Shown: piece after piece, positions 3,981 through 61,599 of the stretch | Layout of the letters: each line of letters opens with the position of its first letter | How positions within the stretch are numbered: position 1 is the first letter of the stretch | Notes under the pieces: model-generated | The model's database searches: none | What the model was told of the DNA's origin: nothing | What the model saw: only the letters and a program-made list of their open reading frames with translations | Made by a program: the position numbers and the translations under genes | Assembly: GCA_963823335.1 (NCBI GenBank) | Contig: CAWGLD010000004.1 | Location: 68,382 to 132,381, forward strand | Direction of reading: 5' to 3' | Source: an uncultured delta proteobacterium | GTDB lineage: Bacteria > Desulfobacterota > Desulfobacteria > Desulfobacterales > B30-G6 | DNA length: 64,000 nucleotides

Positions 3981-4871
3981 ATGATTGACTTTGAGAAATA
4001 TTTGAAAGCATACCAAAAGGATATAAATGCTAAAATTCTTTTGTTGCTGAAAGAATCTGATACGTCCAGCCGTATTGTGCAGGCCATGCAATATTCAATA
4101 TCAGCCGGCGGCAAAAGAATCCGCCCTATTCTGACCCTGGCCGCCGCCGAAGCCACCCATGCCCGGGCATTAGATGTATTGCCGGTCGCTTGTGCCATCG
4201 AAATGATTCACACCTATTCTTTGATTCACGATGATCTGCCGGCCATGGATAACGACACCCTCCGCCGCGGCAAGGCCACGTCACATGTTCAGTACGACGA
4301 GGCCACTGCCATTCTGACCGGGGATGCCCTGTTGACACTGGCCTTTGGCATTCTGTCTTCAACGGCGAACTACTCCCAGAAAAATCTGTCCCGACGCCTG
4401 AAGATCATTTATGTACTGGCAAAGGCTGCCGGGCACCAGGGCATGATCCTGGGTCAGATGCAGGATATCTGTGCCGAGGGCGACACATTAGACCTCGATG
4501 AACTCATTCGAATGCATTCCCTTAAAACAGGGGCCCTGATTGAAGCCTCTATTGTGGTGGGCGCTTTGTTTGGAAATGCCGATCAGACAAGAATGAATTC
4601 CCTACGTCACTATGCGAAAAACATCGGTCTGGCATTTCAGGTCATCGACGACATATTGAATGTTTCAGGAGACCCCGTAAAACTCGGAAAAGCAGTCGGA
4701 ACCGATACGGACAGAGGGAAAAACACTTTCCCGGGACTCATGGGAATGTCGAAGGCCACGGCATATGCCGAAAATCTCGTTCAAACCGCCTTGAAAGCAC
4801 TGGAGTTTTTTGATAACAAAGCAGATCCGTTGCGCGCTATTGCACGGTATATCATTGACCGAAACAACTAG
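3981..4871 (+). CDS. ispA: (2E,6E)-farnesyl diphosphate synthase / geranyltranstransferase
   Basis: First and second aspartate-rich motifs (LIHDDLPAMDNDTLRRG; FQVIDDILN); conserved xseB-ispA-dxs order. Confidence 0.9.
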   Translation: MIDFEKYLKAYQKDINAKILLLLKESDTSSRIVQAMQYSISAGGKRIRPILTLAAAEATHARALDVLPVACAIEMIHTYSLIHDDLPAMDNDTLRRGKATSHVQYDEATAILTGDALLTLAFGILSSTANYSQKNLSRRLKIIYVLAKAAGHQGMILGQMQDICAEGDTLDLDELIRMHSLKTGALIEASIVVGALFGNADQTRMNSLRHYAKNIGLAFQVIDDILNVSGDPVKLGKAVGTDTDRGKNTFPGLMGMSKATAYAENLVQTALKALEFFDNKADPLRAIARYIIDRNN

Positions 4872-4881
4872 AAGCGTTCTC

Positions 4882-5059
4882 AAAAAAGAACATCGAACGT
4901 TCACCATCGAATTTTGAATGAAACGATGGAGAAACAGCTATTCGCTCATAGCTGATAGCTGATAGCTCATAGGGTTTGATCAGGTTGCAGCTATCAGCTA
5001 ATATCATGTTTTCATTCGAAGTTGGACGTTCGATGTTCGATGTTGGACGTTCATCTTTT
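4882..5059 (+). mobile_element. miniature IVS-like palindromic element, family A (heptamer arms), copy R1
   Basis: Left arm 4882-4923 (..GAACATCGAACGTTCACCATCGAATTTTGAATGAAA) and right arm 5009-5059 (TTTTCATTCGAAGTTGGACGTTCGATGTTCGATGTTGGACGTTCATCTTTT) are reverse complements; interior holds a second hairpin of AGCTGAT units (4948-4972 vs 4988-5003). Confidence 0.8.
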
Positions 5060-5080
5060 AAAAAGGAGACACTACCTTTC

Positions 5081-6976
5081 TTGAATTTACTTGATAATAT
5101 ATCTTCCCCTCGTGATTTGAAAAATCTTTCTCGAAACAAATTGAAGTTCTTGTCAGGAGAACTGCGCAAACGTATCGTTGATGTTGTATCCCAAAAAGGT
5201 GGCCATCTCGCCTCCAGCCTGGGGACTGTTGAGTTAACCATTGCCCTGCATTACGTGTTTGAGACACCCGAAGATAAAATAATTTGGGATGTCGGGCATC
5301 AGGCTTATGCGCATAAAATCATCACCGGGCGAAATGACAGGTTCGAAACGATTCGGCAGTTTGGCGGCCTTTCGGGATTTACCCGAAAAAACGAAAGCCC
5401 GTATGACACTTTTTCAACCGGCCACAGCAGCACCTCCATCTCGGCAGGTCTCGGTATTGTGACCGCCAAACGTCTCAAGGGCCAGAAGTCAAAGGTGATT
5501 GCCGTTATCGGGGACGGTTCCATGACTGCCGGTCTGGCTTATGAAGCCTTGAATCAGATCGGTGGTTCACACAAGGACAAGGATCTGATCGTGATCCTGA
5601 ACGACAATGAGATGTCCATATCAAAAAATGTGGGTGCCTTATCCTCCCTTTTGAGCCGCACGCTTTCCCGTAAACGTCTGCAGGACTGGCGTAAGGATTT
5701 CGGTGTCTTTCTGAAATCACTGCCCCGGTTTGGTGATGACATTTATCAGTTTGCCAAGCGCTCAGAGGATTCCTTTAAAACCTTTATAACCCCCGGCATG
5801 CTTTTTGAAGCCTTTAATTTTGAATATTTCGGCCCAATCAACGGCCACAACATCGATCACCTCATCGATATTTTGAACAACATCAAATTTCGAGATGAAC
5901 CCGTCCTGCTGCATGTGGTAACCACCAAGGGCAAGGGTTACCTGCCGGCAGAAAAAAATCCGGTCTATTTCCATGGATGTAGCAGTTTCGATGTGGAAAC
6001 CGGAACATGCGTACCATCTGATATCGATATTCCCTCCTATACAGAGGTTTTCAGTCAAACCATGCTAACCCTGGCGGAATCGGATCAGAAGGTGCTGGCT
6101 GTCACAGCGGCCATGCCCGAAGGAACCGGTCTGGCTGCATTTTCAGACAAATTTCCGGATCGTTTTTTTGATGTGGGCATTGCCGAACAGCATGGTGTCA
6201 CCTTTGCAGCAGGACTGGCGACCGAAGGATTCAAACCGGTGGTGGCCATATACTCCACATTCCTGCAGCGGGCATTCGACCAGGTGCTGCATGACGTCTG
6301 TATAGAATCGCTTCACGTGGTGTTTGCCATCGACAGGGGAGGTATCGTGGGAGAGGATGGTCCCACCCACCAGGGGGTGTTCGACTATGCATACTTGAGG
6401 TGTCTGCCCAACATGGTTGTCATGGCGCCTAAAGATGAAAACGAACTTCGCCATATGCTCAAGACGGCCATATCCCATGACGGCCCCATCGCTGTACGGT
6501 ATCCCCGTGGAACCGGTGTGGGCACATCGCTGACCTCGCCCCTTTCTACGCTACCCATCGGCAAAGGAGAGGTTTTGAAACAGGGCGATGATCTGCTGAT
6601 CCTTGCCGTGGGGAGCAGCGTCAACGAAGCACTGGCAGCCCATACACAACTGAAGGCTGACAATATCGAGGCAACGGTAGTCAACTGCCGATTCATCAAG
6701 CCATTGGATACGGAATTGATAGGCAATCTGGCCAGGCGTATTCAGAAAGTCATCACTGTCGAAGAAAATGTACTCCATGGCGGTTTTGGAAGTGCCGTAC
6801 TCGAATGCTTGAACAATCAGGACATCGTCAATGTGCGGGTCAAACGGATCGGTATCGCAGATATCTTCGTGGAACATGGTCCACAGCGAAAATTACGGTC
6901 CGTCTATGGTGTGGACGCCGCTGCCATCGTCAATGCAGCCAGACAACTGATAGACAAATGGCCCGTTAAAAAATGA
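5081..6976 (+). CDS. dxs: 1-deoxy-D-xylulose-5-phosphate synthase
   Basis: GHQAYAHKIITGR motif, ThDP-binding GDGSMTAG...LNDNEMSIS; start set at TTG 5081 after AAAGGAG (5062-5068), because the ORF-track N-terminus (4976-5080) is a translated repeat arm. Confidence 0.9.
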   Translation: MNLLDNISSPRDLKNLSRNKLKFLSGELRKRIVDVVSQKGGHLASSLGTVELTIALHYVFETPEDKIIWDVGHQAYAHKIITGRNDRFETIRQFGGLSGFTRKNESPYDTFSTGHSSTSISAGLGIVTAKRLKGQKSKVIAVIGDGSMTAGLAYEALNQIGGSHKDKDLIVILNDNEMSISKNVGALSSLLSRTLSRKRLQDWRKDFGVFLKSLPRFGDDIYQFAKRSEDSFKTFITPGMLFEAFNFEYFGPINGHNIDHLIDILNNIKFRDEPVLLHVVTTKGKGYLPAEKNPVYFHGCSSFDVETGTCVPSDIDIPSYTEVFSQTMLTLAESDQKVLAVTAAMPEGTGLAAFSDKFPDRFFDVGIAEQHGVTFAAGLATEGFKPVVAIYSTFLQRAFDQVLHDVCIESLHVVFAIDRGGIVGEDGPTHQGVFDYAYLRCLPNMVVMAPKDENELRHMLKTAISHDGPIAVRYPRGTGVGTSLTSPLSTLPIGKGEVLKQGDDLLILAVGSSVNEALAAHTQLKADNIEATVVNCRFIKPLDTELIGNLARRIQKVITVEENVLHGGFGSAVLECLNNQDIVNVRVKRIGIADIFVEHGPQRKLRSVYGVDAAAIVNAARQLIDKWPVKK

Positions 6977-7877: not shown

Positions 7878-9951
7878 ATGAGTCAAGCATTGGACGAACT
7901 GAGAAACATAGCCCTTTTAGCTCATGGCAGTGCCGGTAAAACATCTCTGGCGGAAGCCATACTGTTCAAAGCCGGTATCACCAAGCGTATCGGAAGAGTC
8001 GAAGATGGTAACACCGTTATGGACTTTGAGCCTGAAGAGCTCAAGAGAAATACCAGTATCAGCAGTGGGTTCTGCCAGTATACCTGGAAAAAGCATACCA
8101 TCAACCTCATCGACACACCTGGAGACCAAAACTTTTTCAGTGACACCAAACTCTCTATGCAGGCTGCGGATGCCGTGGTTCTTCTGGTGGATGCCGTCGA
8201 CGGGGTCAAGGTACAAACCGAGCAGGCATGGGATTTTACTGCCGACCTGAATATGCCTTGCATTATTTTCATCAACAAGCTTGACAGGGAACGGGCCGAT
8301 TTTTCCCGCACATTGGAGGATATCTCTAACTGTCTTGACCTGAAGCCGATCACGCTTCACCTGCCCATAGGAAAAGAAGAAACATTCAAAGGTATTGTCG
8401 ATCTTGTCAGCATGAAGTCTTACATCTATGATGAGCAGGGAAACGTCACCAAGGGTGACATCCCAGACGATATGCAGAGCCAGGTCGAGTCCGAAAAAGA
8501 AAAATTGATAGAGGATGTCGCCGAGGCCGATGATGCGCTCATCGAGCGGTACCTGGAGGGGGAAACACTCAGCGATGAAGACATTAAAAACGCCCTGAAA
8601 AAAGGTGTTCTTTCCAGAGTCTTTGTGCCGGTACTGTGTGGCGCTGCCGTAAAAAACATCGGTATCGATACTCTTCATGGACACCATCAACAGCGTCATG
8701 CCATCACCGGAAGATAGTAAACCACGGACGGGCATCGATCCCAAAGATGACAGCAGCATCGAGCGTTCACCTGACCCGGATGAACCCTTTTCGGCTATTG
8801 TCGTTAAAACCATTGCCGACCCATATGCGGGCAGACTATCTATTTTCAAGGTTATCTCGGGCACATTGGGATCAGAAGGAAATATTTACAATTCCTCCAA
8901 AGAAATCAAGGAACGTTTCAACCAGTTACTTACCATTTTCGGCAAAGAACAAAAACCGGCCACTGGGGCAGGCCCCGGTTCCATCGTTGCCGTGGCAAAA
9001 CTGAAAGAGACAACCACAGGAGATACCCTGTGTGATGAAGGCAGTAAAATTCGGTATCAGTGCGCAGAACCACTGCCGACCCTCATTTCTTTTGCACTGC
9101 AACCCAAATCCAAGGGTGACGAAGATAAAATCTTCAGTTCTCTTTCCAAACTCCTCGAAGAGGATCCTGCCTTGAAGCTCGATCGAAACCTGGAAACGCA
9201 TCAGATTCTTCTGTCAGGTGCCGGCCAGGTCCATATCGAAGCCACCGTCGAAAAACTAAAACGAAAATACAATGTCGAAGTGAACTTGAGTACCCCCAAG
9301 GTACCCTACAAGGAGACCGTCAAGAAAAAAGCACGTGCACAAGGCAAACACAAAAAGCAATCCGGCGGGCATGGCCAATACGGCGACTGCTGGATCGACA
9401 TGGAGCCACTGCCCAGTGGGGCTGGTTTTGAATTTGTGGATGGTGTCGTGGGGGGTGTCATACCCAGGCAGTATATTCCTGCGGTGGAAAAAGGAATTAT
9501 CGAAGCGTCCCAAAAAGGGATCCTGGCCGGCTTCCCCTGTGTTGACTTCAAAGTAACCCTGAATGACGGCTCTTTTCATGCTGTTGACTCTTCTGAGATG
9601 GCCTTTAAAATTGCCGGATCACTGGCCTACAAAAAAGCAGCCGAAAGTGCCAATCCCATATTGCTGGAACCGATCATGAAGGTTACCATCACCACCCCCG
9701 ATGAATACATGGGTGATATTATGGGTGATCTGAACGGGCGGCGCGGCAGGGTCCTCGGCATGGACAGTGCCGGTAAATACCAGGTGATCAATGCCAACGT
9801 ACCCATGGCCGAATTCCTCACTTACGCCCCTGACCTGAGGTCCATGACCGGCGGCCGTGGCATTTATACCATGGAATTTTCTCACTATGACGAAGTTCCT
9901 TCACATTTGGTGGATAAAATCATCGAAGCGGTCGCGGCAGAACAAGAATAA
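7878..9951 (+). pseudogene. elongation factor G paralogue with reading frame broken by one extra base near 8676
   Basis: Two ORFs (7878-8717, 8677-9951) together give a colinear EF-G: G1 AHGSAGKTS, DTPGD, NKLD, then ..VLCGAAVKNIGIDTL | MDTINSVMPSPEDS.. continuing in the +1 frame; removing C8676 restores one ~690-aa frame. Confidence 0.8.
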
Positions 9952-10000: not shown

Positions 10001-10040
10001 AAGGCGCCATGGAAAATACTTCCATGACGCCTTTTTTCTT
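10001..10040 (+). terminator. rho-independent terminator after the EF-G paralogue
   Basis: AGGCGCCATGGA / TCCATGACGCCT stem (one mismatch), 7-nt loop, T6 tract. Confidence 0.7.
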
Positions 10041-10068
10041 TTTGAGCGCTTGACGATACTGTTTGTCA

Positions 10069-10158
10069 GAACAACGTTCCGAATTATCTTTTGTTTCTTC
10101 CTTCCTCCTTCAAACCTATTCAAAATTCGACGTTGGACGTTCGATGTTCGATGTTCAC
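10069..10158 (-). mobile_element. miniature IVS-like element, family A, copy R2 (one arm truncated)
   Basis: Full arm CATTCAAAATTCGACGTTGGACGTTCGATGTTCGATGTTCAC on the plus strand (10117-10158); partner reduced to GAACAACGTTCCGAATT (10069-10085); interior GAAGAAACAAAAG resembles other copies. Confidence 0.6.
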
Positions 10159-10235
10159 TCCTTTGTTGACATAATAATGTCGACACGATCGGACAGGCCA
10201 GGATTCCCTATTCTCCCCCTCTGCCGGTTCAAGAA

Positions 10236-10946
10236 TCAGTCCGCCTGGACGACAAATGGACCTTCCGGAAAGCACTTTTTGCAGGGAGCATATCCTTCCC
10301 AGAAAGCTTCCCAAAGACTGGAAAAGAAAATTCTGTTCGCTCTGTTGGTTTGCAACCCGAATGGACAAGCCTCCCGATGAAATCGTCTGGATCGTTTATT
10401 GGCAAGGAGATTCAGCGCCTGTGCCTCCCATCCACGCCACATACCCTGTTTTCCTTGCATGGCAAGGCGCTGGGATTTTAGAAACAAATCATGATAACGA
10501 TGATTGGGAGGCGTGAACAAACAGTATGCCCATCCTTGCTCAAGCATCACCTTATTGATAAAAATCCTTTCGTGTGTATAGACATAGACAAGCCCTCTGC
10601 CGTAGCGATCCGATTTCTCTTCGCCGTAAGCTATATATACGTCTCGATTCCCCAGGAGTCGTGCATTATTATTTTTTGCTTCGATGCCAAAGGGCTCCAC
10701 GCTCCCGTTTCCGTTGTGTACTTCGGGGGCATTGATTCCAATGTACCGCACAAACTGGTTGTTATCCAAGAGAAGCGTATCCCCGTCCACGACACGCTTT
10801 ACATGGTGCGCATCCATGGCCGGAACTAGCGCCGGCGAAAAAAGAATTATCAGGCATATCAAAAAAGATGAACGTCCAACATCGAACATCGAACGTCCAA
10901 TTATGAATAAAAAAAACAATACCGAATTATTTCTGTTTCTTTTCAT
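10236..10946 (-). CDS. secreted thermonuclease (SNase-like) fused to a C-terminal Ada-type zinc-binding domain
   Basis: SNase core VVDGDTLLL...YIGINAPE...RYGRGLVYVY; C-terminus FHREACPFG..N...F.S...A...GYAPCKKC matches Ada_Zn_binding. The 5' end overlaps repeat R3; start may be ATG 10946 or the ATG inside the repeat arm (MFDVGRSSFLICLIILFSPALVPA signal-like). Confidence 0.75.
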   Translation of the reverse strand: MKRNRNNSVLFFLFIIGRSMFDVGRSSFLICLIILFSPALVPAMDAHHVKRVVDGDTLLLDNNQFVRYIGINAPEVHNGNGSVEPFGIEAKNNNARLLGNRDVYIAYGEEKSDRYGRGLVYVYTHERIFINKVMLEQGWAYCLFTPPNHRYHDLFLKSQRLAMQGKQGMWRGWEAQALNLLANKRSRRFHREACPFGLQTNRANRIFFSSLWEAFWEGYAPCKKCFPEGPFVVQAD

Positions 10947-11096
10947 CGGTTTTGATGCTCGTGCCGAAAATCTCAATTCTTCCGTTTCTTCCTTTCGCAG
11001 TTAAACACATTGAAGAACCTCGCAGCAAGCTACGGGGTTAGCGCTCGCTTTTTCGGTTCAAAATTCGATGTTGGACGTTCGATGTTCGATGTTCAA
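10861..11096 (+). mobile_element. IVS-like element, family A, copy R3 (carries a family C repeat in its interior)
   Basis: Left arm 10861-10905 AAAAAAGATGAACGTCCAACATCGAACATCGAACGTCCAATTATGAAT and right arm 11059-11096 AAAATTCGATGTTGGACGTTCGATGTTCGATGTTCAAA are complementary. Confidence 0.7.
11010..11061 (+). repeat. repeat family C, copy 2
   Basis: TTGAAGAACCTCGCAGCAAGCTACGGGGTTAGCGCTCGCTTTTTCGGTTCAA, aligns with 3660-3713. Confidence 0.7.
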
Positions 11097-11157
11097 ATTT
11101 TTTCTGTATCTTCTTTATTGGACGTAACCCTGCGATGTTTTATTGTTTCGGTTAAAA

Positions 11158-11198
11158 GCAACGGTGTCGCGTCAAATAAAATCGTTTCACGATTTTAT
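11158..11198 (+). repeat. bipartite boundary hairpin motif, copy e
   Basis: GCAAC-ggt-GTCGC GTCAAAT AAAATCG-tttca-CGATTTTAT; the stop (11187-11189) and last codons (..GIKS*) of the minus-strand gene are encoded by the AT hairpin. Confidence 0.75.
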
Positions 11199-12284
11199 TC
11201 CGCAGTGTCTCACCGCACTTTCATCAAGAATACTGGAAAGCCCCCCCCGGTCCGCAGGCAGGTATCCCATGACCTGTTCCCAGACATCGTCGTCTTCCAT
11301 ACAGAAATAGACTGTCAAATCTGGAGCAAATTTACGAATAACTGAAACCATGTGCTGGTATATTCGGATCCGAAGGGGCTTGAAATATCGCATTTTGCCG
11401 TCCAGACCTGGAATGAATTCTCCGTAAACAATCGTTGACCCAGGAAAACGCTGCTGGATGATCGGCTTCAGCTGCGGCATGAAACGGAAAGTGCCGATAC
11501 TTATCCAGACAATATTCTGTGGGGCTACATGGGCAAATATCTGTTTGATGATCTCTTCGTAATCGTTTTCACAGCCATCATATATGACCACCGGGTCGAA
11601 GTGAAATGCAATTGGATAGCCCCAGGATTCGCACGTTTGGGCAGCCCGGAGTCGAGATTCTATGCTTGCTGTACCCCGCTCCTCGGTTTTCGAAACGGCA
11701 AGGGAATTGATTGACCAGGAAAGAATTGTCTTTCGATGGTGGACCAATGATGCGAACGGTGCGATGGACACGGTCTTGGTTTTCAATTCGAGCACCGATC
11801 GTGATTGCGATGCAAACCGTTGCACTAGTCGGGTGTTTAAATCAGACCATTTCCCCCAGATGAGGCTGTCGGTAAATTCCCCCGTACCGATCCGGGATCC
11901 TTCTTCAAGGGACAAATGATGGTCCAGCTCAGCAAACAGATCGTCATGATTCACAAAAAACTGGCATATGGGTGGATGAAAATAGGTCTGCAGGATGCAG
12001 TATGCACAATCCATGGTGCAGAAGGTACCGATGTGAAGAATCTTGTATCCGCAGCAGGTATAGGATCGTGTTCCCGGGCATTCTTTAATGAACCTGCCCT
12101 TGTTGCGGGTCAACAAAAGGACCTCCTTACCGCTTTGGATCGGATCTTTTGCGCCGGAAAGCTGCTCAAAAAGTGCCTGGGTTTCATCTACCACACTGAA
12201 AGGGATATGGAGACGCGACACAATCTGCTTCACGACCGGTAAATCGAGGACATCTTTATGAACCAGTAGCTTTGAAATGGTCAT
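11187..12284 (-). CDS. spore-photoproduct-lyase-family radical SAM protein (DNA repair photolyase-like)
   Basis: CTMDCAYC radical-SAM CxxxCxxC cluster in an SPL/COG1533-like context; 365 aa. Confidence 0.6.
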   Translation of the reverse strand: MTISKLLVHKDVLDLPVVKQIVSRLHIPFSVVDETQALFEQLSGAKDPIQSGKEVLLLTRNKGRFIKECPGTRSYTCCGYKILHIGTFCTMDCAYCILQTYFHPPICQFFVNHDDLFAELDHHLSLEEGSRIGTGEFTDSLIWGKWSDLNTRLVQRFASQSRSVLELKTKTVSIAPFASLVHHRKTILSWSINSLAVSKTEERGTASIESRLRAAQTCESWGYPIAFHFDPVVIYDGCENDYEEIIKQIFAHVAPQNIVWISIGTFRFMPQLKPIIQQRFPGSTIVYGEFIPGLDGKMRYFKPLRIRIYQHMVSVIRKFAPDLTVYFCMEDDDVWEQVMGYLPADRGGLSSILDESAVRHCGIKS

Positions 12285-15399: not shown

Positions 15400-15447
15400 G
15401 CAATAAGCGGATAGCAGCTAAGTACTTATAGCTTACAGCTTGGATTC

Positions 15448-17646
15448 CTAAAATTTCAATCTGGCATAATAGGTCTTTTCCGAGGCTTTCCTGGCCTCAC
15501 CCAATGTCCGAATCCCCATATCCGCTAGCAGCGAGACAAGTTTGAGGAAAATATTAGCCGTCATAAGGGCATCCCCCATGGCGGTGTGGCGACCGGCCAC
15601 GTTGACGCCCAATCGGCCGGCAATGGCGGACAAGGCATGATCATCATGAGCGGAGTGGGCCACTGCTGATAGTAACAGCGTATCCAAAACAGGTTGGATA
15701 AATTTTACACCCGTTCGGTTCTCACACATCTGGAGCATGCGCATATCAAAGGCTGCATTATGAGCGACCAATATGGTCTCCTCCGAAAATTTTAAAAAAT
15801 TCGGCAGAACCACATCGATGGTGGGTTGGTTTTTCACCATATCGTTGTCGATCCCATGAATATGGGTCGAAGATGCTGGTATACTTCGTTGGGGATTAAT
15901 CAATTGATTGAATGGTTCTTCAGTTAGAATGCGTCCGTTAATAATTCGGAGTGCGCCGATGGATATTATTTCGTCACCGCTGGAAGGATCCAGACCAGTG
16001 GTTTCTGTATCAAAAACAGTATAGGCAAGCTCGTTTAACAAGTGCGAATCCAAGTTGGGGCTTTGACCGGGTTGATTGAATAAATCAAAGGCATAGAATT
16101 CGGGCCGACTTTCGGGTAGTACCGAGGCACGACGTATGGCTTTCTGTTCCTGGGGTCTAAATAGGGGTACATGCATGCGCAGGAAAGAACGCTTTTCACC
16201 ATGATGCTCACGATAGGCCCATATTTCAATTCCATGATGTTCTAAAATCTCCTTGGGATGCAAGGGCATACGCTCATCTAAAAAAGCAAGCTGCATGTTT
16301 TCCCACTGTCGTATTTTCTCAATACTTATGGGTTTACCTGCCCACATAATATCCACAAAAGCGAATTCGTTCTCAAGTGAGTATTCACACCGATAGTGTG
16401 TGACTTCGGCCTCTTCACTAATCCGTTGTAGAAAAAACAAAAGGACCATCATAATAGCATAGGTATCTACCTTAATCCACGACTCCGCCGAATCAAATTT
16501 AAAGCTTAAATCAATATCCAGCTTTGCGGCTGCCCTTTTTTGCAGCGCCACCAGCAGTTCACTGATGGTGATCGGCATTGTGGGCCAGTGTTTGTGCGTC
16601 TGTTTGAATGTTTGGTTACCCTCCCGCTGAATTAACTTCTCCAGTGATTGAGACTCCGTATAAATGATCTCCAGCAACTGTTGCTGTTGTGAACTGCTTA
16701 CATTGGGGTATTCACGTATTACCTCAATAGCTGATTTGACGCTGGCAACAGAGTGCCGGACTTCTTGCTGAAAAGATTGCAACAAAAATCCAGATCGAGC
16801 TTCACCTCGTAATTCCTGGGTAATTTCATTGAAGATGATAACAAAACCGGAGAACTCACGTTGGGAGCTCAATATGGGCGATGCCTCCGCTCGCAGCAAC
16901 CGATTGGCCAAATCAGTGATTACAAAATTGGAACTTACATTTTCCTCATTTTTTTCAAGTCGCTGATGGATTTCCTCCAGGGCATACTGAAGAATGTTCC
17001 CCTCAACAAAATCTGAGACAGGCCGGCCGATGCCAATGTGAACTTTACCGGACGTTGTCGCTTCTACTGAATCGGTTTTACCTGTTGAGGCGGAGGGGCG
17101 CCCGATGGTAGCCTTTTCACTGAAAAACCGTTTGGCCTGGGAATTGTAAAGAATGATTCGACTATCCTTGTTGCAAATCAATACCGCGTCCGGCAGTTCT
17201 GCCATGATGGCAGCTAAAATGTTCTTTTCCTCCTCCAACTCTGCCTTGGCCACCTGGACGCGCTTAAAAACGCTCTTCTCAAGGGTTTCATATTTTTCTG
17301 CGGCTGAATTAACCTGTTGAATAAGATGCCCCATTCCAAAAGCAGTGTCCATCTGAATGCGATGATGTGGATTGGCGGTGTAAATCAGTGCGATTTCTTC
17401 AGATACTTTGGACAGCGGGATAACCAGTTTTAAGAATATGCGTGCCAGAAAAAATCCAAGCAACGCGATTACAGCCAGGCAAAAAACCAAGACCACGGGG
17501 ATATAGGCACAAATACCCTCCTGGTTGGCGAAATTACTATGATTTGCGGATTGATGCCAGAAAAGCATCATCAATGCAAGTCCCAGCAAGGCTGCTACAC
17601 TGAGGGACATGCACAGGGCCCACCAGATTTTGTTTTTATTTTTCAT
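15448..17646 (-). CDS. membrane sensor (2 TM, linker, PAS-like region) fused to a C-terminal DnaQ/epsilon-type DEDDh 3'-5' exonuclease
   Basis: ExoI FDTETTGLD, ExoII AHNAAFDMRML, ExoIII HTAMGDALMTANIF in the last ~190 aa; two N-terminal hydrophobic helices; the central region weakly resembles DHp/CA of histidine kinases. Confidence 0.8.
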   Translation of the reverse strand: MKNKNKIWWALCMSLSVAALLGLALMMLFWHQSANHSNFANQEGICAYIPVVLVFCLAVIALLGFFLARIFLKLVIPLSKVSEEIALIYTANPHHRIQMDTAFGMGHLIQQVNSAAEKYETLEKSVFKRVQVAKAELEEEKNILAAIMAELPDAVLICNKDSRIILYNSQAKRFFSEKATIGRPSASTGKTDSVEATTSGKVHIGIGRPVSDFVEGNILQYALEEIHQRLEKNEENVSSNFVITDLANRLLRAEASPILSSQREFSGFVIIFNEITQELRGEARSGFLLQSFQQEVRHSVASVKSAIEVIREYPNVSSSQQQQLLEIIYTESQSLEKLIQREGNQTFKQTHKHWPTMPITISELLVALQKRAAAKLDIDLSFKFDSAESWIKVDTYAIMMVLLFFLQRISEEAEVTHYRCEYSLENEFAFVDIMWAGKPISIEKIRQWENMQLAFLDERMPLHPKEILEHHGIEIWAYREHHGEKRSFLRMHVPLFRPQEQKAIRRASVLPESRPEFYAFDLFNQPGQSPNLDSHLLNELAYTVFDTETTGLDPSSGDEIISIGALRIINGRILTEEPFNQLINPQRSIPASSTHIHGIDNDMVKNQPTIDVVLPNFLKFSEETILVAHNAAFDMRMLQMCENRTGVKFIQPVLDTLLLSAVAHSAHDDHALSAIAGRLGVNVAGRHTAMGDALMTANIFLKLVSLLADMGIRTLGEARKASEKTYYARLKF

Positions 17647-32653: not shown

Positions 32654-32811
32654 AAATGAACATCGAACGTCCAACGTCCAACATCGAATTTTGAATGGGT
32701 AAGAATGAAGAAACAGACTTATTCTTTAGATAGAAAAACCGCTCGATTTTTCGACATTGTCTTTATTCTTTTCATTCGACGTTCGATGTTCGATGTTCGA
32801 TGTTCATCTTT
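32654..32811 (+). mobile_element. miniature IVS-like element, family A, copy R4
   Basis: Arms 32654-32699 and 32769-32811 are complementary; the interior starts GAATGGGTAAGAATGAAGAAACAG like other copies; it abuts the uvrC stop codon. Confidence 0.8.
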
Positions 32812-36648: not shown

Positions 36649-36682
36649 GGGCTCAATTAGGATCTTACTATGATGAATTTAT

Positions 36683-36843
36683 AAAAGATGAACATCGAAC
36701 ATTGAACATCGAACGTCCAATGCTGAATGCAAAGAAAAGTTCAATATTGAATAATTAAGCAGTTTTTCCAAGACATACACCTGTTTCTTCATTTACCCCA
36801 TTCAAAATTCGATGTTGGACGTTCGATGTTCGACGTTCATTTG
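36683..36843 (-). mobile_element. miniature IVS-like element, family A, copy R5 (inverted orientation)
   Basis: Arms 36683-36735 and 36796-36843; the minus-strand interior GAATGGGGTAAATGAAGAAACAGGTGTATGTCTTGGAAAAACTGCTTAATTATTC aligns with the 5' end of the 48567 ORF; the cysS stop TGA lies in the arm terminus. Confidence 0.8.
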
Positions 36844-38285
36844 TCAATTTCCCAGTGAGTCCCATCCGGACGGTCCTTGAGAACAATATTCATGGATGCC
36901 AGCTGTTCTCTGATCTGATCGGCCCTTTGCCAGTTTTTCTCCTGTCTTGCAACCTCACGGTCAGCGATCAATGTTTCAATTAATTTTGCGTCGATTGTTT
37001 CCTGTGCCAGAACAGATTCACGTTGAACATTGAAGTAGACATCCGGCGTATCGCCACCGATGCCCAGCACAGCCCCCATCCGCAGTATTTCCAATCTGAT
37101 GGCGAACAGCGATAACAACACATCCCGGGTATTCATGCTGGTTTCATGCTCATCCATGATACGGTTGGCATGCCTTACGGCATTGAAGATGACGGCGATA
37201 CCGTTGGCGGTATTGAAATCATCATCCATAGCTCGACAAAAATCCTTCCAGAATGGCATGACTGCCGGTGTCGTAGAAGGCTTCTTCACCCCGGCGAGAG
37301 TCTCATCTATTCGAAGAAGCAGGGCATAAATCCGGTCCAGAGCAGTTCGTGACGCCTCCATGGAATCCTGGTTGAAATCAATAGGCTTTCGATACTGTTT
37401 CGAGAGCAGAAAAAGCCTGATGGACTCTGGGTGGTAATGCTGAATGACATCTTTTATCATCCGGAAATTGCCCAGAGACTTGGACATTTTTTCCTTGTCT
37501 ATATTCACAAACCCGTTATGGATCCAGTATCGAACAAAATCACGTCCATGTACCGCCTCTGACTGGGCAATTTCATTTTCATGATGAGGGAATATCAGAT
37601 CTCTGCCACCTCCATGAATATCGAAGGTTTCGCCCAGGTATTTGGCACTCATGGCCGAGCATTCGATGTGCCAACCCGGTCGCCCCTTCCCCCATGGGCT
37701 GTCCCATGACGGTTCACCCTCTTTTGCAGATTTCCAGAGAATAAAATCGAAGGGATTACCCTTGCGGGGGTCTACTTCCACGCGGGCCCCCGGATCCATG
37801 TCTTCCAGATGACGATTCGATAATTTGCCATAGGCATCAAAGGTTTCAACAGCAAAAAAAACATCCCCATCGACCACGTAGGCAACCTTCTTTGCTATCA
37901 GCTTTTCGACGAGTTGAATCACATCGTCAATATGCTCCGTTACCCTCGGCTCAAAACTGGCTCTTTCCACCTTCAGGGCATCCATGTCCCGGTAGAATTC
38001 CTCGATATATTTATCAGCCAGCGCTTTCGGATCCATACCGCTTTCTGCTGCACGACGTATGATCTTGTCGTCGATGTCGGTAAAATTTCTCACGTAGACA
38101 ACGTCATAACCCTTGGTTTTCAAATATCGGGAGATCACGTCGAATACAACCACGGACCGGGCATGCCCAATGTGGCAGGAGTCATAAACCGTTGGTCCAC
38201 AAACGTACATGAGCACCTTTTCAGGCTCAATGGTTTGGAACAATTCTTTCTTCTGGGTTAAGGTGTTATAGATGGAAATGGGCAT
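36837..38285 (-). CDS. cysS: cysteine--tRNA ligase
   Basis: HIGH (CHIGHARS) and KMSKS motifs; 482 aa. Confidence 0.95.
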   Translation of the reverse strand: MPISIYNTLTQKKELFQTIEPEKVLMYVCGPTVYDSCHIGHARSVVVFDVISRYLKTKGYDVVYVRNFTDIDDKIIRRAAESGMDPKALADKYIEEFYRDMDALKVERASFEPRVTEHIDDVIQLVEKLIAKKVAYVVDGDVFFAVETFDAYGKLSNRHLEDMDPGARVEVDPRKGNPFDFILWKSAKEGEPSWDSPWGKGRPGWHIECSAMSAKYLGETFDIHGGGRDLIFPHHENEIAQSEAVHGRDFVRYWIHNGFVNIDKEKMSKSLGNFRMIKDVIQHYHPESIRLFLLSKQYRKPIDFNQDSMEASRTALDRIYALLLRIDETLAGVKKPSTTPAVMPFWKDFCRAMDDDFNTANGIAVIFNAVRHANRIMDEHETSMNTRDVLLSLFAIRLEILRMGAVLGIGGDTPDVYFNVQRESVLAQETIDAKLIETLIADREVARQEKNWQRADQIREQLASMNIVLKDRPDGTHWEIDK

Positions 38286-38357: not shown

Positions 38358-38522
38358 GAGTCAGGGTTTGAGGGGTGGAGGGGTGCGGCTTGCAGGATAA
38401 TAGACAATAAACTGTATATTACTAAACACCTAATAGTCTGCTGTCTACTACTTGTTGTCCGGGTATACCCTCCAACCCATCAAACCTCCAACCCTCCAAC
38501 CCTTCAATCCTCCAACCCTTCC
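38358..38522. repeat. long imperfect hairpin with octamer-unit arms (GGGTTNAN type)
   Basis: GAGTCAGGGTTTGAGGGGTGGAGGGGTGCGG (38358-38388) vs CCGGGTATACCCTCCAACCCATCAAACCTCCAACCCTCCAACCCTTCAATCCTCCAACCCTTCC (38459-38522); the right arm runs into the ispF 3' end (..EGLED*). Confidence 0.6.
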
Positions 38523-46496: not shown

Positions 46497-46760
46497 AAGA
46501 AGGATTCAAGGATTCCAGGGGTCCAGGGTTCGAGTGAGATGAAGTGAGGCATCAGCTAAATGCTTAAAAATTGTAAAGAGTTAAAAGTTGTGGATTGGAA
46601 ACACAGACGATGATATCCGGTGTTTTGGATTATATGAACAAGAAAAAGCTTCAGGGATTAAGAGAGGAGCTTGGGGATGTAGAGAGAATGCTAAAAGCGA
46701 TGATCAAATCCCTGGAAAACAAACACTTCAATCCTTGAATCCTGGACTCCTTGAACCCTT
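46497..46760 (+). mobile_element. IVS-like palindromic element, family B (octamer arms) with a four-helix-bundle gene remnant
   Basis: Left arm AAGAAGGATTCAAGGATTCCAGGGGTCCAGGGTTCGAGTGAG (46497-46538) pairs imperfectly with CACTTCAATCCTTGAATCCTGGACTCCTTGAACCCTT (46724-46760). Confidence 0.7.
46568..46738 (+). pseudogene. 3' fragment of a four-helix-bundle (23S rRNA IVS protein family) gene
   Basis: The open frame reads ..ELKSCGLETQTMISGVLDYMNKKKLQGLREELGDVERMLKAMIKSLENKHFNP*, matching the last two helices of PF05635-type proteins; the N-terminal half is absent. Confidence 0.6.
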
Positions 46761-48525: not shown

Positions 48526-49012
48526 AAACTAATGAACATCGAACATCGAACGTCCAACATCGAATTTTGAATAAAAAGATAAAGAAACAGGCGTATGATC
48601 TGGAAGAAAGGTTGCTCGAGTATTCGGTGAGAATCGTAAAACTCGTTGAACAACTTCCAAATACCAAGGCAGGCAGTCATATTGCGGGGCAATTGTTAAG
48701 ATCTGGAACTTCACCATACCCAAATCATGGTGAAGCTCAGGCAGCGGAATCCCCGAAAGACTTTATCCATAAATTACGTATTTCATTAAAGGAACTCAGG
48801 GAAACCCAGCGATGGTTAAAATTAATACAGCGAGTACCACTAATTAAAAAGCCTGAACTATTGAAGGATATTATCGAGGAAACTGAAGAATTAATTAAGA
48901 TTTTCGTCGCGAGCATTAAAACTGCGGAAAAGAGAAAGAGATAATTCATTATTGTTTGTTTTTCATTCGACATTGGACGTTCGATGTTCGATGTTGGACG
49001 TTCATCTTTAAA
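48526..49012 (+). mobile_element. full-length IVS-like palindromic element, family A, copy R6 (carries an intact ORF)
   Basis: Left arm 48531-48572 and right arm 48961-49009 are near-perfect reverse complements enclosing the 48567-48944 ORF. Confidence 0.85.
48567..48944 (+). CDS. four-helix-bundle protein (23S rRNA intervening-sequence protein family, PF05635/TIGR02436-like)
   Basis: ..AGQLLRSGTSPYPNHGEAQAAESPKDFIHKLRISLKELRETQRWLKLI.. fits the family signature; 125 aa with no internal Met; the TTG start lies inside the left arm. Confidence 0.8.
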   Translation: MNKKIKKQAYDLEERLLEYSVRIVKLVEQLPNTKAGSHIAGQLLRSGTSPYPNHGEAQAAESPKDFIHKLRISLKELRETQRWLKLIQRVPLIKKPELLKDIIEETEELIKIFVASIKTAEKRKR

Positions 49013-57803: not shown

Positions 57804-57974
57804 AAAGAGATGAACATCGAGCATCGAACGTCCAACATCGAATTTTGAATGGGAAAAGATGAAGAAATGGGCCAATGATCTTTAATAAAGTCCGCTTGAC
57901 TATTCGTCGGTATTGTTTTTTTCTTTTCATTCGATGTTGGACGTTGAATGTTCGATGTTGGACGTTCATCTTTT
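57804..57974 (+). mobile_element. miniature IVS-like element, family A, copy R7
   Basis: Arms 57804-57852 and 57922-57974; interior GAATGGGAAAAGATGAAGAAATGGGCCAATGATC... Confidence 0.8.
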
Positions 57975-58070
57975 AAATCTTTACTTTGGCATAAATGCAG
58001 TTTGTACTTGATATGCCAATAGATACGATCGATTTTTTGTAAAACGTCATTGTTTTATCGCTTGGGAACC

Positions 58071-58300
58071 AATGAACGTCGAACATCGAACGCTCAACAT
58101 CGAATTTTGAATGGGTATAAATGAAGAAACAGGTGTATGTTGAATGGGAAAAGATGAAGAAATGGGCCAATGATCTTTAATAAAGTCCGCTTGACTATTC
58201 GTCGGTATTGTTTTTTTCTTTTCATTCGATGTTCATCTTTTAAACCTTTTTTGATTCATCATTGGACGTTCGATGTTCGATGTTCGATGTTCATCTTTTA
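58071..58300 (+). mobile_element. IVS-like element, family A, copy R8, containing a nested partial copy of R7
   Basis: Outer arms 58071-58113 and 58259-58300; 58141-58243 repeats the R7 interior plus a truncated arm. Confidence 0.7.
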
Positions 58301-58396
58301 AATATTTACTACGGCATAAATACTGTTTGTACTTGATATGCCAATAGATACGATGGATTTCTTGTAAAATGTTAATTGTTTTAAAGCCGGGGAACC

Positions 58397-58631
58397 AATG
58401 AACATCCAACATCGAACGTCCAACATCGAATTTTGAATTTAAAAGATGAAGAAACAAGTATATGATTTCCTGTCATTCCCGTGTGTTTGCTCCTTAGCAG
58501 GAATGGGACGAGAGTCCAGTGGACACTATATATGCACGGCTTACCCGAATTTTTTAAGAAGTTGCTAACTTCAGCATTAAATATTTCTTTTCATTCGACG
58601 TTGGATGTTCGATGTTGGACGTTCATCTTTT
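58397..58631 (+). mobile_element. IVS-like element, family A, copy R9 (longer interior)
   Basis: Arms 58397-58440 and 58586-58631; the interior begins AAAAGATGAAGAAACAAGTATATGATTTCC (the ORF 5' homology). Confidence 0.75.
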
Positions 58632-58660
58632 AAAAAGTTCTGTAAAGGAATTTAATTAAA

Positions 58661-60838
58661 TTGAACATAAATACCATTCTGAAAAAATACAAAACTTCTG
58701 AAAGAAAAACACTCTCAGAACACGAATCCAAACAGATACTGCAGGCCTATGGTATCCCTGTTGTCCGGGAGACCGTCGCTACAACAAAAGAAAACGCAGT
58801 GGCGGCAGCCCTGGAAATCGGCTTCCCCATCGTTTTGAAGGGACTGGGTGCCCGGTTGACCCACAAGACCGAGCGCGGTCTGGTGCATACGCACCTGAAA
58901 ACCAAAACCGAGGTTCGATCAGCCGCCGAGAACATACAGCAAAAGGCCGGGAGTGATCTGGAAGGCTTTCTTGTCCAGCCCCAGATCCAGGGGAAAAGGG
59001 AGTGGATCGCGGGTCTTTCCCATGACGATCAGTTCGGACCGGTCATCATGTTCGGTGCCGGCGGCATTTTAACCGAAGCCATCTCGGATGTGACCTTCCG
59101 CCTTGCGCCTTTGTCACCTGAGGACGCCCAGGCGATGATCCATGAAATCAAATCATCTGCCTTACTCGACAATTTCCGGGGCGAGGCAAAAATTGACAAA
59201 ATACAGCTCGTTAAAGTTCTCACAGGTTTGAGTAAACTTGTCCAAGATCATCCTGAAATTGTCGAGGTGGATATCAACCCCCTCATCGCGACTCCCAGCG
59301 GGGATTTAATGGCCGTCGATGCGCTGGTGGTTGTGGGTACCAAACACCAAACAGCCGCCTCACCTCCCAGCACCTTCCAACCGGAGTCTCTGATGCCCTT
59401 CTTTTATCCCAAATCCATTGCCTTTATCGGTGCCTCTGCCACCATGGGCAAGTGGGGCCACATGCTGGTGGCAAACACCAAAAGCGGCGGCTATGCGGGA
59501 AAGATATACCTTGTCAATCCAAAAGGGGGGAAAATTGTGGGCCAAGAGGCCTATCGATCCCTTTCCGATATTCACGACCCGGTCGACCTTGCCATCGTCA
59601 CCATACCGGCCGAACATGTGATAAGCCTGATTCCGCAGCTACAGGCAAAAGGCATCCATCACATGCTTCTGATAACCTCAGGATTCTCCGAAACCGACAA
59701 CGCCGGAAAAAAACGCGAAAAAGAACTGGTCGCATCGGCGCGGCAGGCCGGAATCCAGATACTGGGTCCCAACACCATGGGTATCTGCAATCCCCACGTG
59801 GCTCTCAACTGCACCAGCCTGCCCGTACAACCGAGACCGGGATCCACCGCTCTTGTATCCCAATCCGGGAACATGGGCACCCAGTTCCTGGCCTTTGCAG
59901 AACATCAGGGCATCGGTATCCGTGGTTTTTGTGGGTCCGGCAATGAAGCCATGACCACCATCGAAGACTTTCTGGAAGTTTTTGAAGCGGATGAGCTCAC
60001 AAAAACCGTCATGCTCTATATCGAAAGTGTCAAAAATGGCCGTCGCTTTTACGAGACCGCCAGGCGTCTGGGGAAAATAAAACCGATTATTCTGATGAAA
60101 GGCGGACAAACTCAAGCCGGCATCAAGGCGGCAGCCAGCCATACCGGAGCGTTGAGTACCGATGCCAGAATTTTCAATTCGGTTTGCAGGCAGGCAGGCA
60201 TTGTCAAGGTGGAACAGTCCATGGATCTGCTCGATCTGGCTGCGGCCTTCTCTTCCCTGCCGCTGCCCAAAGGCAATCGTGCCGGTATCATGACCCTTGG
60301 GGGCGGCTGGGGTGTGGTCACCGCCGATCTGTGTAACGAATACCATATAGACGTTCCAGACCTGTCCCCCGGTCTGATCGAGCAGATCGACAAGTGGCTG
60401 CCCCCTTTCTGGAGCCGATCAAACCCCATCGATCTCGTTGGAGAACACAACGACACCCTGCCGCTGACAATTATCGAAGAACTCTTAAAATGGGACGGCT
60501 GTGATGCCGTTATCAATCTCGGTATCATGGGTCGCAAACATCTGGCCGGACTCTATGTCGATGCTGTCAAGCGTTCTGACCCCATGTACGAGCCCTCATT
60601 TTTAGACAGCATTAAAGAAACACTAGCGGCATTTGAAAAAAGATATGTCGAAGAAATCGCCAGACTCATGGAGATCTACCAGAAACCCGTTATCGGCGTC
60701 TCCCTCTTGACAGATGCCCTGGATCGTACCACGTATTTGGTTGAAAACTGCCCATACAAAGGTGTTTTCTACACAACCCCGGAGCGCGCCGTTAAAACGC
60801 TGGCTAAAATGGTGCAATACAGTAAGTATAAAACGTAG
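58661..60838 (+). CDS. ADP-forming (NDP-forming) acyl/acetyl-CoA synthetase, fused ATP-grasp + CoA-binding + ligase-CoA domains
   Basis: N-terminal ATP-grasp (..LSEHESKQILQAYGIPV..), then CoA-binding ..PKSIAFIGAS....GG.. and SCS-alpha-like domains with a phosphohistidine-type loop (AASHTGAL); TTG start. Confidence 0.8.
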   Translation: MNINTILKKYKTSERKTLSEHESKQILQAYGIPVVRETVATTKENAVAAALEIGFPIVLKGLGARLTHKTERGLVHTHLKTKTEVRSAAENIQQKAGSDLEGFLVQPQIQGKREWIAGLSHDDQFGPVIMFGAGGILTEAISDVTFRLAPLSPEDAQAMIHEIKSSALLDNFRGEAKIDKIQLVKVLTGLSKLVQDHPEIVEVDINPLIATPSGDLMAVDALVVVGTKHQTAASPPSTFQPESLMPFFYPKSIAFIGASATMGKWGHMLVANTKSGGYAGKIYLVNPKGGKIVGQEAYRSLSDIHDPVDLAIVTIPAEHVISLIPQLQAKGIHHMLLITSGFSETDNAGKKREKELVASARQAGIQILGPNTMGICNPHVALNCTSLPVQPRPGSTALVSQSGNMGTQFLAFAEHQGIGIRGFCGSGNEAMTTIEDFLEVFEADELTKTVMLYIESVKNGRRFYETARRLGKIKPIILMKGGQTQAGIKAAASHTGALSTDARIFNSVCRQAGIVKVEQSMDLLDLAAAFSSLPLPKGNRAGIMTLGGGWGVVTADLCNEYHIDVPDLSPGLIEQIDKWLPPFWSRSNPIDLVGEHNDTLPLTIIEELLKWDGCDAVINLGIMGRKHLAGLYVDAVKRSDPMYEPSFLDSIKETLAAFEKRYVEEIARLMEIYQKPVIGVSLLTDALDRTTYLVENCPYKGVFYTTPERAVKTLAKMVQYSKYKT

Positions 60839-61266: not shown

Positions 61267-61408
61267 AAAAATGATGAACGTCGAACATCGAACGCTCAAC
61301 ATCGAATTTTGAATGGAGAGATGAAAAAACAGATGCGGGACTCGGGTTTAACTATTTCTTTTTATTCGACGTTGGACGTTGGATGTTCGATGTTGGACGT
61401 TCATCTTT
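61267..61408 (+). mobile_element. miniature IVS-like element, family A, copy R10
   Basis: Arms 61267-61316 and 61361-61408; interior AGAGATGAAAAAACAGATGCGGGACTCGGG. Confidence 0.8.
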
Positions 61409-61487
61409 AAGATCTTTTTAAACCCAAATCGGATACCTGCAAGAAAGCTTTATTCAATTGGCATAAATGATACTCCGATAGAAGTTT

Positions 61488-61599
61488 AAAAATGATGAAC
61501 GTCGAACATCGAACGCTCAACATCGAATTTTGAATGGAAAGATGAAAAAACAGATGCGGGACTCGGGTTTAACTATTTCTTTTTATTCGACGTTCATCT
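61488..61599 (+). mobile_element. miniature IVS-like element, family A, copy R11 (right arm truncated)
   Basis: The left arm and interior are nearly identical to R10; the right arm is reduced to TTTTTATTCGACGTTCATCT. Confidence 0.75.

Follow-up and report, generated by a model that had tools for sequence, protein, structure and literature searches.

A decayed, intervening-sequence-like miniature hairpin element between ispA and dxs in an uncultured Desulfobacterales bacterium

The window analyzed here is a 64-kb stretch of DNA (64,000 nucleotides; positions 68,382 to 132,381 of contig CAWGLD010000004.1, assembly GCA_963823335.1) from an uncultured bacterium of the Desulfobacterales. The spacer between its ispA and dxs genes, within the xseB-ispA-dxs operon, is filled by an inverted-repeat hairpin element of approximately 180 bp (window positions 4882-5062) that holds no open reading frame (ORF). 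Comparison with other copies identified this element as a decayed, ORF-less internal-deletion derivative of a multicopy family of cassettes, called family A, which resemble the intervening sequences (IVSs) of rRNA genes; in its behavior the element is like a miniature inverted-repeat transposable element (MITE). The element is of a known sort, IVS-like and MITE-like, in a new setting outside rRNA. Its membership of the family and its derived origin are held with high confidence. The overall reading preferred here, that the copy is read through with its operon, may be cleaved by RNase III and has a small net effect, is considered reasonably probable.

Position, arms and predicted fold of the element

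The upstream gene, ispA (polyprenyl synthetase; 3981..4871, forward strand, from the ORF list; Pfam PF00348, E 2.4e-61), ends at a TAG stop codon (4869-4871), and the element begins 10 nt further on in a spacer of 210 nt. The left (L) arm (4882-4923, forward strand) is made of tandem GAACATC-type heptamers and ends in GAATTTTGAATG. It is 94% identical over 33 nt (31/33) to the L consensus and represents a short variant, one heptamer below the commonest form and with two substitutions; the distance from ATGAAC to GAATTTTGAAT is 23 nt in this copy and in 10/51 copies, and 30 nt in 41 copies. The right (R) arm (5009..5062, forward strand) consists of TTTTCATTCGA, TTCGATG/TTGGACG heptamers and GTTCATCTTTTAAA, is 98% identical over 54 nt (53/54) to the R consensus, and was assigned a period of 7 at 5015-5052 by Tandem Repeats Finder (TRF). 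An earlier note on this DNA, made from the letters alone, had described a 178-bp element with family A arms in the ispA-dxs spacer; this was borne out, with the right end corrected from 5059 to 5062. The dxs Shine-Dalgarno (SD) sequence AAAGGAG was found where the note had put it (5062-5068, forward strand). The gap of 2 nt claimed between element and SD was not, since GTTCATCTTTTAAA, the right end conserved in the family, extends to 5062, where it adjoins or overlaps the A-run of the SD.

RNA folding of 4872-5075 (204 nt) gave -73.7 kcal/mol versus -44.3 +/- 3.7 kcal/mol for dinucleotide shuffles (z -8.06; none of 200 shuffles as stable). Approximately 34 pairs are formed between the arms, in helices of 16 bp and 13 bp around a 7-nt bulge, and the complementary borders thus give a stable stem-loop as in rRNA IVSs.

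Directly 3' of the left arm, CGATGGAGAAACAG (4924-4937) aligns with AAGATGAAGAAACAG, the conserved start of the S23p ORF that full-length members of the family carry. When aligned with other copies, this vestige (4926..4955, forward strand) reads ATGGAGAAACAG for the family's ATGAAGAAACAG (M-K-K-Q) and is now a nine-codon ORF, MEKQLFAHS*. Only the first four S23p codons are left in it; the N-termini of full-length family ORFs are of the form MKKQ.YDLEERLLEY.

The interior (4935-5008) is unrelated to the family S23p ORF and contains an inner hairpin of AGCTGAT/AGCTCAT heptamers (4943..5002, forward strand; fold, TRF and pair search), in which ATAGCTGATAGCTGATAGCTCATAG (4948-4972) faces GCAGCTATCAGCTAAT (4987-5002). 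Its perfect 12-bp core pairs 4956-4967 with 4989-5000, and the array of period 7 detected by TRF spans 4944-4972. These heptamers also make up an arm directly after a gene stop at L110:2735-2790, and (AGCTGAT)n arrays of at least 18 nt were present in 87 viral-contig stretches from unrelated, often GC-rich genomes; 9/102 of the arrays in viral contigs were small intergenic hairpins, such as L277:808-861. The interior is therefore a second, independent and widespread type of heptamer-repeat hairpin nested in a family-A shell. The nested hairpin had been proposed in the earlier note as an independent structure, and it was found to be one of a different heptamer type, with the facing arm one nucleotide off its earlier coordinate. 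Elsewhere in the window a small AGCT-rich hairpin (GATAGCAGCTAAG...CTTATAGCTTACAGCTT; 15400-15448), similar in composition to the inner hairpin, lies in the spacer after a 904-aa gene; the nearest relative, L002, carries a family-A copy at the matching position.

The repeat family and its S23p gene

Window copies were located by blastn-short with consensus arms, and at least 10 family-A copies were found in the 64-kb window. The 29-nt R-arm core GGACGTTCGATGTTCGATGTTGGACGTTC gave nine window matches at no more than three mismatches versus 0.00 expected. The family signature comprises, on the left, ATGAAC(ATCGAAC)n...GAATTTTGAATG and, inverted on the right, TTTTCATTCGA...(GATGTTC)n...GTTCATCTTT(T)AAA, both of which are present in the ispA-dxs copy. 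The arms are period-7 tandem arrays (TRF), and all window copies fold with 20-43 arm-arm base pairs.

One full-length member lies in the window (48532..49009, forward strand), between T2SSE-like (MshEN) and T2SSF-like genes. It carries an S23p four-helix-bundle ORF (48567-48944, 125 aa; PF05635, E 5e-15; TIGR02436, E 6.9e-26; PDB 2rld_A, E 3e-17), and PDB 2rld, the best structural match, is an entry with five chains. The ORF has ATA in place of the canonical ATG (AAGATAAAGAAACAG vs AAGATGAAGAAACAG) and is open only from a TTG inside the L arm; it may be a fresh pseudogene, or the TTG start may be used. The label "IVS-like" that the earlier note had given to the miniature is justified because this full-length member encodes the 23S-rRNA-IVS protein family (S23p; PF05635/TIGR02436), and other miniatures keep remnants of the ORF.

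Metagenome contigs were scanned for an exact match to a 26-nt R-arm core, and at least 120 contigs matched. From the window and the matched metagenome loci 56 distinct paired elements were taken, which fell into miniature (117-350 bp) and full-length (approximately 480-610 bp) size classes. Intact members have two inverted arms of 4-6 tandem heptamers (GAACATC / GATGTTC type) around a four-helix-bundle gene of 121-125 aa. Arm lengths varied only in 7-nt steps (L 23 or 30 nt; R 31, 38 or 45 nt), and those of the ispA-dxs copy, 23 (L) and 38 (R) nt, are among these discrete classes. Ten full-length S23p ORFs were 65-89% identical to the window ORF (nine at 83-89%, and that of L166 at 65%). In approximately 17 miniature copies nested parts of the ORF survive, for the most part from its C-terminal portion, e.g. 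residues 64-125, 78-125, 93-125 and 101-125. Since the arms are shared with full-length copies and the ORF remnants are graded, the miniature copies are regarded as internal-deletion derivatives.

For the S23p ORF the median pairwise ratio of nonsynonymous to synonymous substitution rates (dN/dS) was 0.09 at a mean dS of approximately 0.7, and the ORF is under strong purifying selection. A search with the S23p protein gave at least 7989 homologue clusters, and the best 120 were all at least 81% identical. The arms were 85-89% identical versus 83% nucleotide identity for the ORF; because the loci were chosen by exact arm match, no conclusion was drawn on arms being more conserved than the ORF. 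Own-partner compensatory evolution of the arms was absent among the 56 elements (own R -49.5 vs other R -49.6 kcal/mol, permutation p 0.68), and arm pairing is therefore seen as a property of the family that is not kept copy by copy.

No rRNA signature motifs were found in approximately 200 fetched loci carrying the family, and no rRNA was found by Rfam in the window. The Rfam covariance models gave no hit at gathering score in the window and none at E <= 1 in 4700-5200. In a Nitrospirota metagenome-assembled genome (MAG), L072, a divergent S23p-family ORF was found between 36-nt inverted arms of GAATTCG/GAATGCG (GAATKCG) heptamers (L072:8922-9443). The architecture of this cassette (8960-9443) is as in family A, with unrelated arm sequence and in another phylum. 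An S23p ORF between heptamer-repeat inverted arms is known, then, from Desulfobacterota and L072 here and from the Coxiella IVS (PMC4990558).

Nine stretches on eight predicted viral contigs (IMG/VR, L203-L211) were observed to contain exact family-A R-arm cores, which could reflect phage or prophage carriage, or mis-binned host DNA. No S23p ORF was found in viral contigs with family-A arms or AGCTGAT arrays.

Comparison with relatives

Relatives were collected by a Dxs-based scan of species-representative genomes, which gave 80 loci. Dxs identity to the nearest relative, L002, was 89%, and to every other it was at most 71%. The ispA-dxs spacers of 45 relatives were mostly 3-70 nt long, or contained unrelated inserts, and no family-A arms were found in relatives' ispA-dxs spacers. 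A spacer identical in distant relatives had been named in the earlier note as the sign of an ancestral feature; distant relatives do not share the spacer, and the insertion reading stands.

The window and L002 are syntenic over approximately 15 kb at 76-82% nucleotide identity, unbroken save at element sites; at three sites the two do not carry the same elements. Where the window has a spacer of 48 nt, L002 carries a family-A miniature (L002:17407-17541). In place of window block 10037-11203, with its solo arm, SNase-like gene and miniature copy, L002 has approximately 200 nt. Its ispA-dxs spacer measures 50 nt and, directly past the ispA stop, reads AACAGCCAGGGCCCGGCATCGATTTCTGAAT, a 25-31-nt stub that aligns with L-arm positions 10-41 and agrees with the window's L arm in site and direction. 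The local score of the stub was 29, whereas 2000 shuffles reached 25 at most, and of the spacers of 47 relatives this one scored best. The simplest account would be one insertion in the common ancestor of both lineages, followed by deletion in L002 to the arm stub. Independent insertion into a hotspot is an alternative to it, because other relatives carry unrelated elements in this spacer: inverted arms of CTAAAGTG repeats at L027:7846-8001, inverted arms of GGTTCA repeats at L077:1892-2210, and a different inverted repeat at L070:4802-4970. The ispA-dxs spacers of L036, L045 and L048 also hold unrelated elements with short tandem repeats. In Desulfobacterota this spacer looks like a recurrent landing site, and on either account the element in the window is derived and lineage-specific and not an ancestral regulatory feature.

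In the block missing from L002, the solo L arm (10118..10157, minus strand; 97.5% over 40 nt) and a 233-bp miniature copy (10863..11095, minus strand; arm search) stand on either side of the SNase-like gene (10236-10817, minus strand), which also has an Ada Zn-binding domain. A degenerate arm-like stretch at L002:13020-13060 is all that L002 keeps of the block.

Neither the flanks of the 56 elements nor the sites polymorphic between L002 and the window, where spacers are too diverged to align, showed a target-site duplication or a clean empty site. The flanks of the 56 elements are A-rich on the left and T/A-rich on the right, with recurrent neighboring modules.

The dxs start codon

The start of dxs (5081..6976, forward strand) is placed at TTG 5081 because Pfam DXP_synthase_N positions 1-274 align with residues 4-281 of the protein so begun, because relatives (L002, L003, L006, L011, L014, L021, L024 and L077) have a TTG start at the same position, because AAGGAGA in L002 is as far from its TTG as the window's SD is, and because the DNA upstream is repeat DNA that recurs at many non-coding sites. 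The Dxs N-terminus predicted from this start is M-N-L-L-D-N. Homology to L002 stops at 4870 and restarts at 5080, one base ahead of this TTG. Read in the dxs frame, the R arm contains no stop codon, and the frame is open from TTG 4976, 35 codons 5' of TTG 5081; the public gene call on an identical contig uses ATG 5006 as the dxs start. The upstream extension is repeat DNA and an annotation artefact. A false N-terminal extension of Dxs, as the earlier note had it, is supported by the domain starting at residue 4, by the TTG of the relatives and by the homology from 5080. The extension of 35 codons given there holds from TTG 4976, while the peptide quoted with it, MFSFEVGRS..., begins at ATG 5006, 25 codons 5' of TTG 5081. 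Many database S23p homologues are likewise annotated 20-80 residues too long, a recurring error in which gene callers run ORFs into open-reading repeat arms.

Transcription, RNA processing and rival explanations

Orientation was counted on paired elements only. The upstream gene was co-oriented in 30/36 of them (p 7e-5) and the downstream gene in 23/35, and the arm duplex was slightly more stable on the sense than on the antisense strand in 39/56. In the window, copies occupy the spacers ispA|dxs and T2SSE|T2SSF and a site 5' of a gene which we take, from reading its translated N-terminus, to be putatively UvrB-like; they often lie a few nucleotides past a stop codon. This placement of the family fits dependence on read-through transcription, as for rRNA IVSs.

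The element was inserted between ispA and dxs in a recent ancestor of this Desulfobacterales lineage, and the SD and TTG of dxs were kept intact. In the mechanism proposed, read-through transcription of the element is probable, since it points the same way as the xseB-ispA-dxs operon around it, and we regard its co-transcription with the operon as likely. The arms would then pair in the mRNA as the bulged stem of 16 bp and 13 bp, which could serve as a substrate for RNase III, and a cut there would part the ispA and dxs halves of the transcript. RNase III removes IVSs from rRNA after transcription, without re-ligation; the Coxiella IVS, which has heptameric repeats beside its S23p ORF, is cut by the enzyme in the middle of the inverted-repeat stem (PMC4990558). 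The enzyme also binds Correia elements, which it either cuts or protects (PMC2649163). From these parallels, cleavage of the arm stem is conceivable, with the chances somewhat against it, and ispA and dxs might be uncoupled by endonucleolytic processing, as the earlier note had suggested. The net effect on dxs would be small, and the element would be a tolerated selfish insertion, not a dedicated regulator. Taken singly, it is probably an ordinary decaying copy, close to neutral.

Occlusion of the dxs SD by the element was rejected. In the partition function the unpaired probability of GGAG in the SD was 0.29 with the element and 0.27 without it, the local SD-to-start hairpin forms in either case, and accessibilities were nearly equal with, without and downstream of the element. 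An internal dxs promoter was rejected as well; the candidate TTGATC-17-TAATAT at 4976-5004 scored only 8/12 and was not called by the promoter scan.

Several observations weigh against the preferred reading. Of the 56 elements, the ispA-dxs copy forms the least stable arm duplex (-39 vs a mean of -49.5 kcal/mol), and its longest unbroken helix is 16 bp; classical RNase III substrates, at approximately 20 bp, are longer. L002 runs the same operon with an arm stub only, so that expression of ispA and dxs does not require the hairpin. The stability gap between sense and antisense is small, the copies are not phylogenetically independent, and the arms are without own-partner compensatory change (permutation p 0.68). 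Neither a target-site duplication nor a clean empty site was found in the flanks of the 56 elements or in the L002 comparison, and S23p is not known to be a transposase, so mobility is deduced only from presence/absence differences and copy number.

Some of these observations would suit an element that is transcribed and simply tolerated, its hairpin neither cleaved nor regulatory, as a selfish insertion that is neutral and leaves the expression of ispA and dxs unchanged. The arms are the weakest of the family with helices of at most 16 bp, predicted accessibility of the SD and start codon is practically equal with or without the element, only a stub is kept by L002 in the same operon, and copy-specific compensatory arm changes are absent. 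Long imperfect stems of like kind are nevertheless cut by RNase III in rRNA IVSs and Correia elements (PMC4990558, PMC2649163), and the bias of the family in orientation (30/36) points to a role for the strand that is transcribed. This neutral reading is rather unlikely.

A partial intrinsic terminator, attenuator or 3'-end stabilizer, in which ispA transcripts would be terminated or shielded by the stem followed by CAUCUUUU and fewer would continue into dxs, is improbable. All family copies end in GTTCATCTTT(T) and many begin past an A-run, giving a hairpin and U-tract on the sense strand, and many lie directly 3' of stop codons. A terminator-like site was found in the R arm (stem 5023-5053, then TCTTTTAAAA), but such sites are at chance level in the region (2 found, 2.2 expected), the U-tract has just four U and is interrupted, and the base of the stem is AU-rich. 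Copies are also found inside operons whose genes need co-expression (ispA|dxs, T2SSE|T2SSF), and no good sigma-70-like dxs promoter was found between the element and dxs.

More doubtful still is action at the level of DNA, with the arms extruding as a cruciform or slipping in replication, so that the element would be a hotspot of recombination or rearrangement and not an RNA element. The exact 7-nt steps in arm length indicate replication slippage, compound, truncated and solo-arm forms exist, the SNase-like gene flanked by family pieces is missing from L002, and the antisense fold is nearly as stable as the sense fold. Slippage and rearrangement follow from the repeat structure, however, and need not be its function, and a pure DNA role leaves the co-orientation with upstream genes unexplained.

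A native cis-regulatory leader of dxs (riboswitch or thermosensor) or a coding N-terminal extension of Dxs, suggested by the position directly 5' of the dxs SD, by the R arm being open in the dxs frame and by the public call at ATG 5006, is effectively refuted, the sequence being missing from all relatives bar the L002 stub and present at no fewer than 10 unrelated window sites, with no Rfam match even at E <= 1 and with the Dxs domain and conserved TTG beginning at 5081.

Resemblance to known systems

A close likeness of the decayed IVS-like copy is to rRNA IVSs with an S23p ORF, as in Leptospira and Coxiella burnetii (PMC4990558). Intact family-A members carry a PF05635/TIGR02436 protein, the ORF lies between complementary arms of a long stem, and heptameric repeats stand next to the ORF start, as in Coxiella. 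ORF-less or decaying versions, a sporadic spread among relatives and a sense orientation in the host transcript are also shared. The ispA-dxs element differs in lying between protein-coding genes, away from the 23S/16S rRNA helix that defines an IVS, and in having no S23p ORF (four codons left) where the full-length copies of the family have one. The copy number of family A is high, at least 10 per 64 kb, unlike that of rRNA IVSs.

With the Correia elements (CREE) of Neisseria and similar co-transcribed MITEs (PMC2649163) the element shares a length of 100-250 bp, the lack of an ORF, inverted repeats and many copies. Like them it is intergenic and, as they often do, lies within an operon; it is present or absent between related genomes and is expected to form an RNA hairpin of a kind open to binding or cleavage by RNase III. 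The two are unrelated in sequence, and the family-A arms are tandem heptamers and not a unique terminal inverted repeat. No target-site duplication was seen at family A, and its full-length partner encodes a four-helix-bundle protein, not a transposase. As a MITE, the element qualifies by its size (approximately 180 bp), non-coding nature, terminal inverted repeats and many copies, by being an internal-deletion derivative of a longer coding element with the same ends, and by its presence/absence polymorphism between the window and L002; a parent transposase and a target-site duplication were not found.

Intergenic heptanucleotide repeats (the LSSR of Mrazek et al.; TAACTGA in Beggiatoaceae, Cyanobacteria and Bacteroidetes; PMC4679880) resemble both the arms and the inner hairpin in their period-7 arrays of slippage-variable copy number, their position just 5' of start codons and their sporadic phylogenetic distribution. 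In contrast to these, the arrays of the element are inverted pairs that enclose, or once enclosed, a gene, and the units are GAACATC and AGCTGAT. Avd, the accessory protein of diversity-generating retroelements (PMC10053308), has the fold and Pfam family of S23p and is a pentameric four-helix bundle. Unlike in those retroelements, no reverse transcriptase or template/variable repeat lies beside the full-length copy, its neighbors being T2SSE and T2SSF, and no Avd-like ORF is left in the ispA-dxs element.

The S23p domain has been found in both 16S and 23S rRNA insertions in a study of the candidate phyla radiation (CPR), and 23S_rRNA_IVP genes are wedged among cas genes, e.g. cmr3|cmr2, where they were read as a functional association (PMC3936711). 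A description of S23p cassettes outside rRNA as dispersed repeats or MITEs was not found in the literature, the coverage of which was incomplete, so that this is an absence of evidence only.

Other copies and features in the window

Miniature copies were also found by arm search at 32656..32811 (forward strand), filling a convergent spacer, and at 36682..36840 (minus strand). The TGA stop of the gene at 36837..38285 (minus strand) lies within the terminal ATGAAC of the latter, and the insertion therefore supplies or has replaced the end of that gene. A cluster of three copies (57810..58634, forward strand) comprises 57810-57977, a compound copy at 58072-58302, and 58398-58634, with repeated spacer modules of approximately 95 nt between them. 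Two further miniature copies (61274..61599, forward strand; arm search) lie at 61274-61408 and at 61495-61599, the second with a truncated R arm.

A conserved module of approximately 60-95 nt, ACAACCCCGTATGGCATAAATGCAACCTGTGAACGTTTACAAAATAACTTAGCGCTTATGGGG, follows many family-A copies; it was seen at 57978-58071 and 58303-58397 and also in L116, L198, L151, L095, L117 and others, and the window versions include GGCATAAATGCAGTTTGTACTTGATATGCC. Conserved left flanks such as TTTTGCCCAGGAAGGACTGAAAAAA or ATTGTTTTAAYGCTGGRAAAC precede many family-A copies. Rfam gave no match for the module flanking family-A copies. The family-A unit may therefore be larger, or may be nested in other repeats. A tRNA-like sequence (...GGGTTCAAATCCCACCCCTTCGGCCA) was noted at L133:~2230-2320, approximately 70 nt 3' of a family-A miniature copy.

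Other short-tandem-repeat hairpins in the window are located at 46498-46760 (AAGGATTC 8-mers), 38360-38520 (GGAGGGTG/ACCCTCCA 8-mers) and 60838-61015 (GGGTTCA/ACAGTCTA units). An S23p origin was considered for the repeat family at 46498-46760 and rejected, a Pfam scan of the putative C-terminal remnant being without a PF05635 match. The EF-G-like gene at 7878-9951 appears as two overlapping ORFs, 7878..8717 and 8677..9951, and the L002 alignment is unbroken there; a frameshift or an assembly error is possible.

Implications

The family is a more interesting object than the single ispA-dxs copy. In a wider reading, which we advance only tentatively, S23p hairpin cassettes would be a distinct and largely unrecognized class of mobile or selfish element whose protein recognizes the arms, and rRNA IVSs would be the special case that landed in rRNA. 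A pentameric, Avd-like S23p would recognize the 5-6 tandem heptamers of an arm, as RNA or as DNA, and would aid the spread or maintenance of cassettes in trans, possibly via an RNA intermediate. The ORF-less miniatures, the ispA-dxs copy included, would be parasites of the S23p system, and read-through sites in operons, such as ispA|dxs, T2SSE|T2SSF and cmr3|cmr2, would be colonized by preference. The cas-associated 23S_rRNA_IVP genes (PMC3936711) would then be re-read as insertions and not as functional partners.

For the organism, the finding means that the isoprenoid operon, an essential one, encodes a long RNA hairpin at which its transcript may be divided. For the family, it bears on the nature of IVS elements and the S23p protein, a question that has stood since the early 1990s; the Coxiella study lists a "remnant of transposition" and a "mobile element whose ORF aids mobility" as unproven (PMC4990558). 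Family A offers test material for this question, with hundreds of copies outside rRNA, full-length beside deleted forms, an ORF with a dN/dS of approximately 0.09, heptamer-quantized arms, presence/absence differences between genomes approximately 80% identical, and a marked preference for co-oriented sites 3' of genes.

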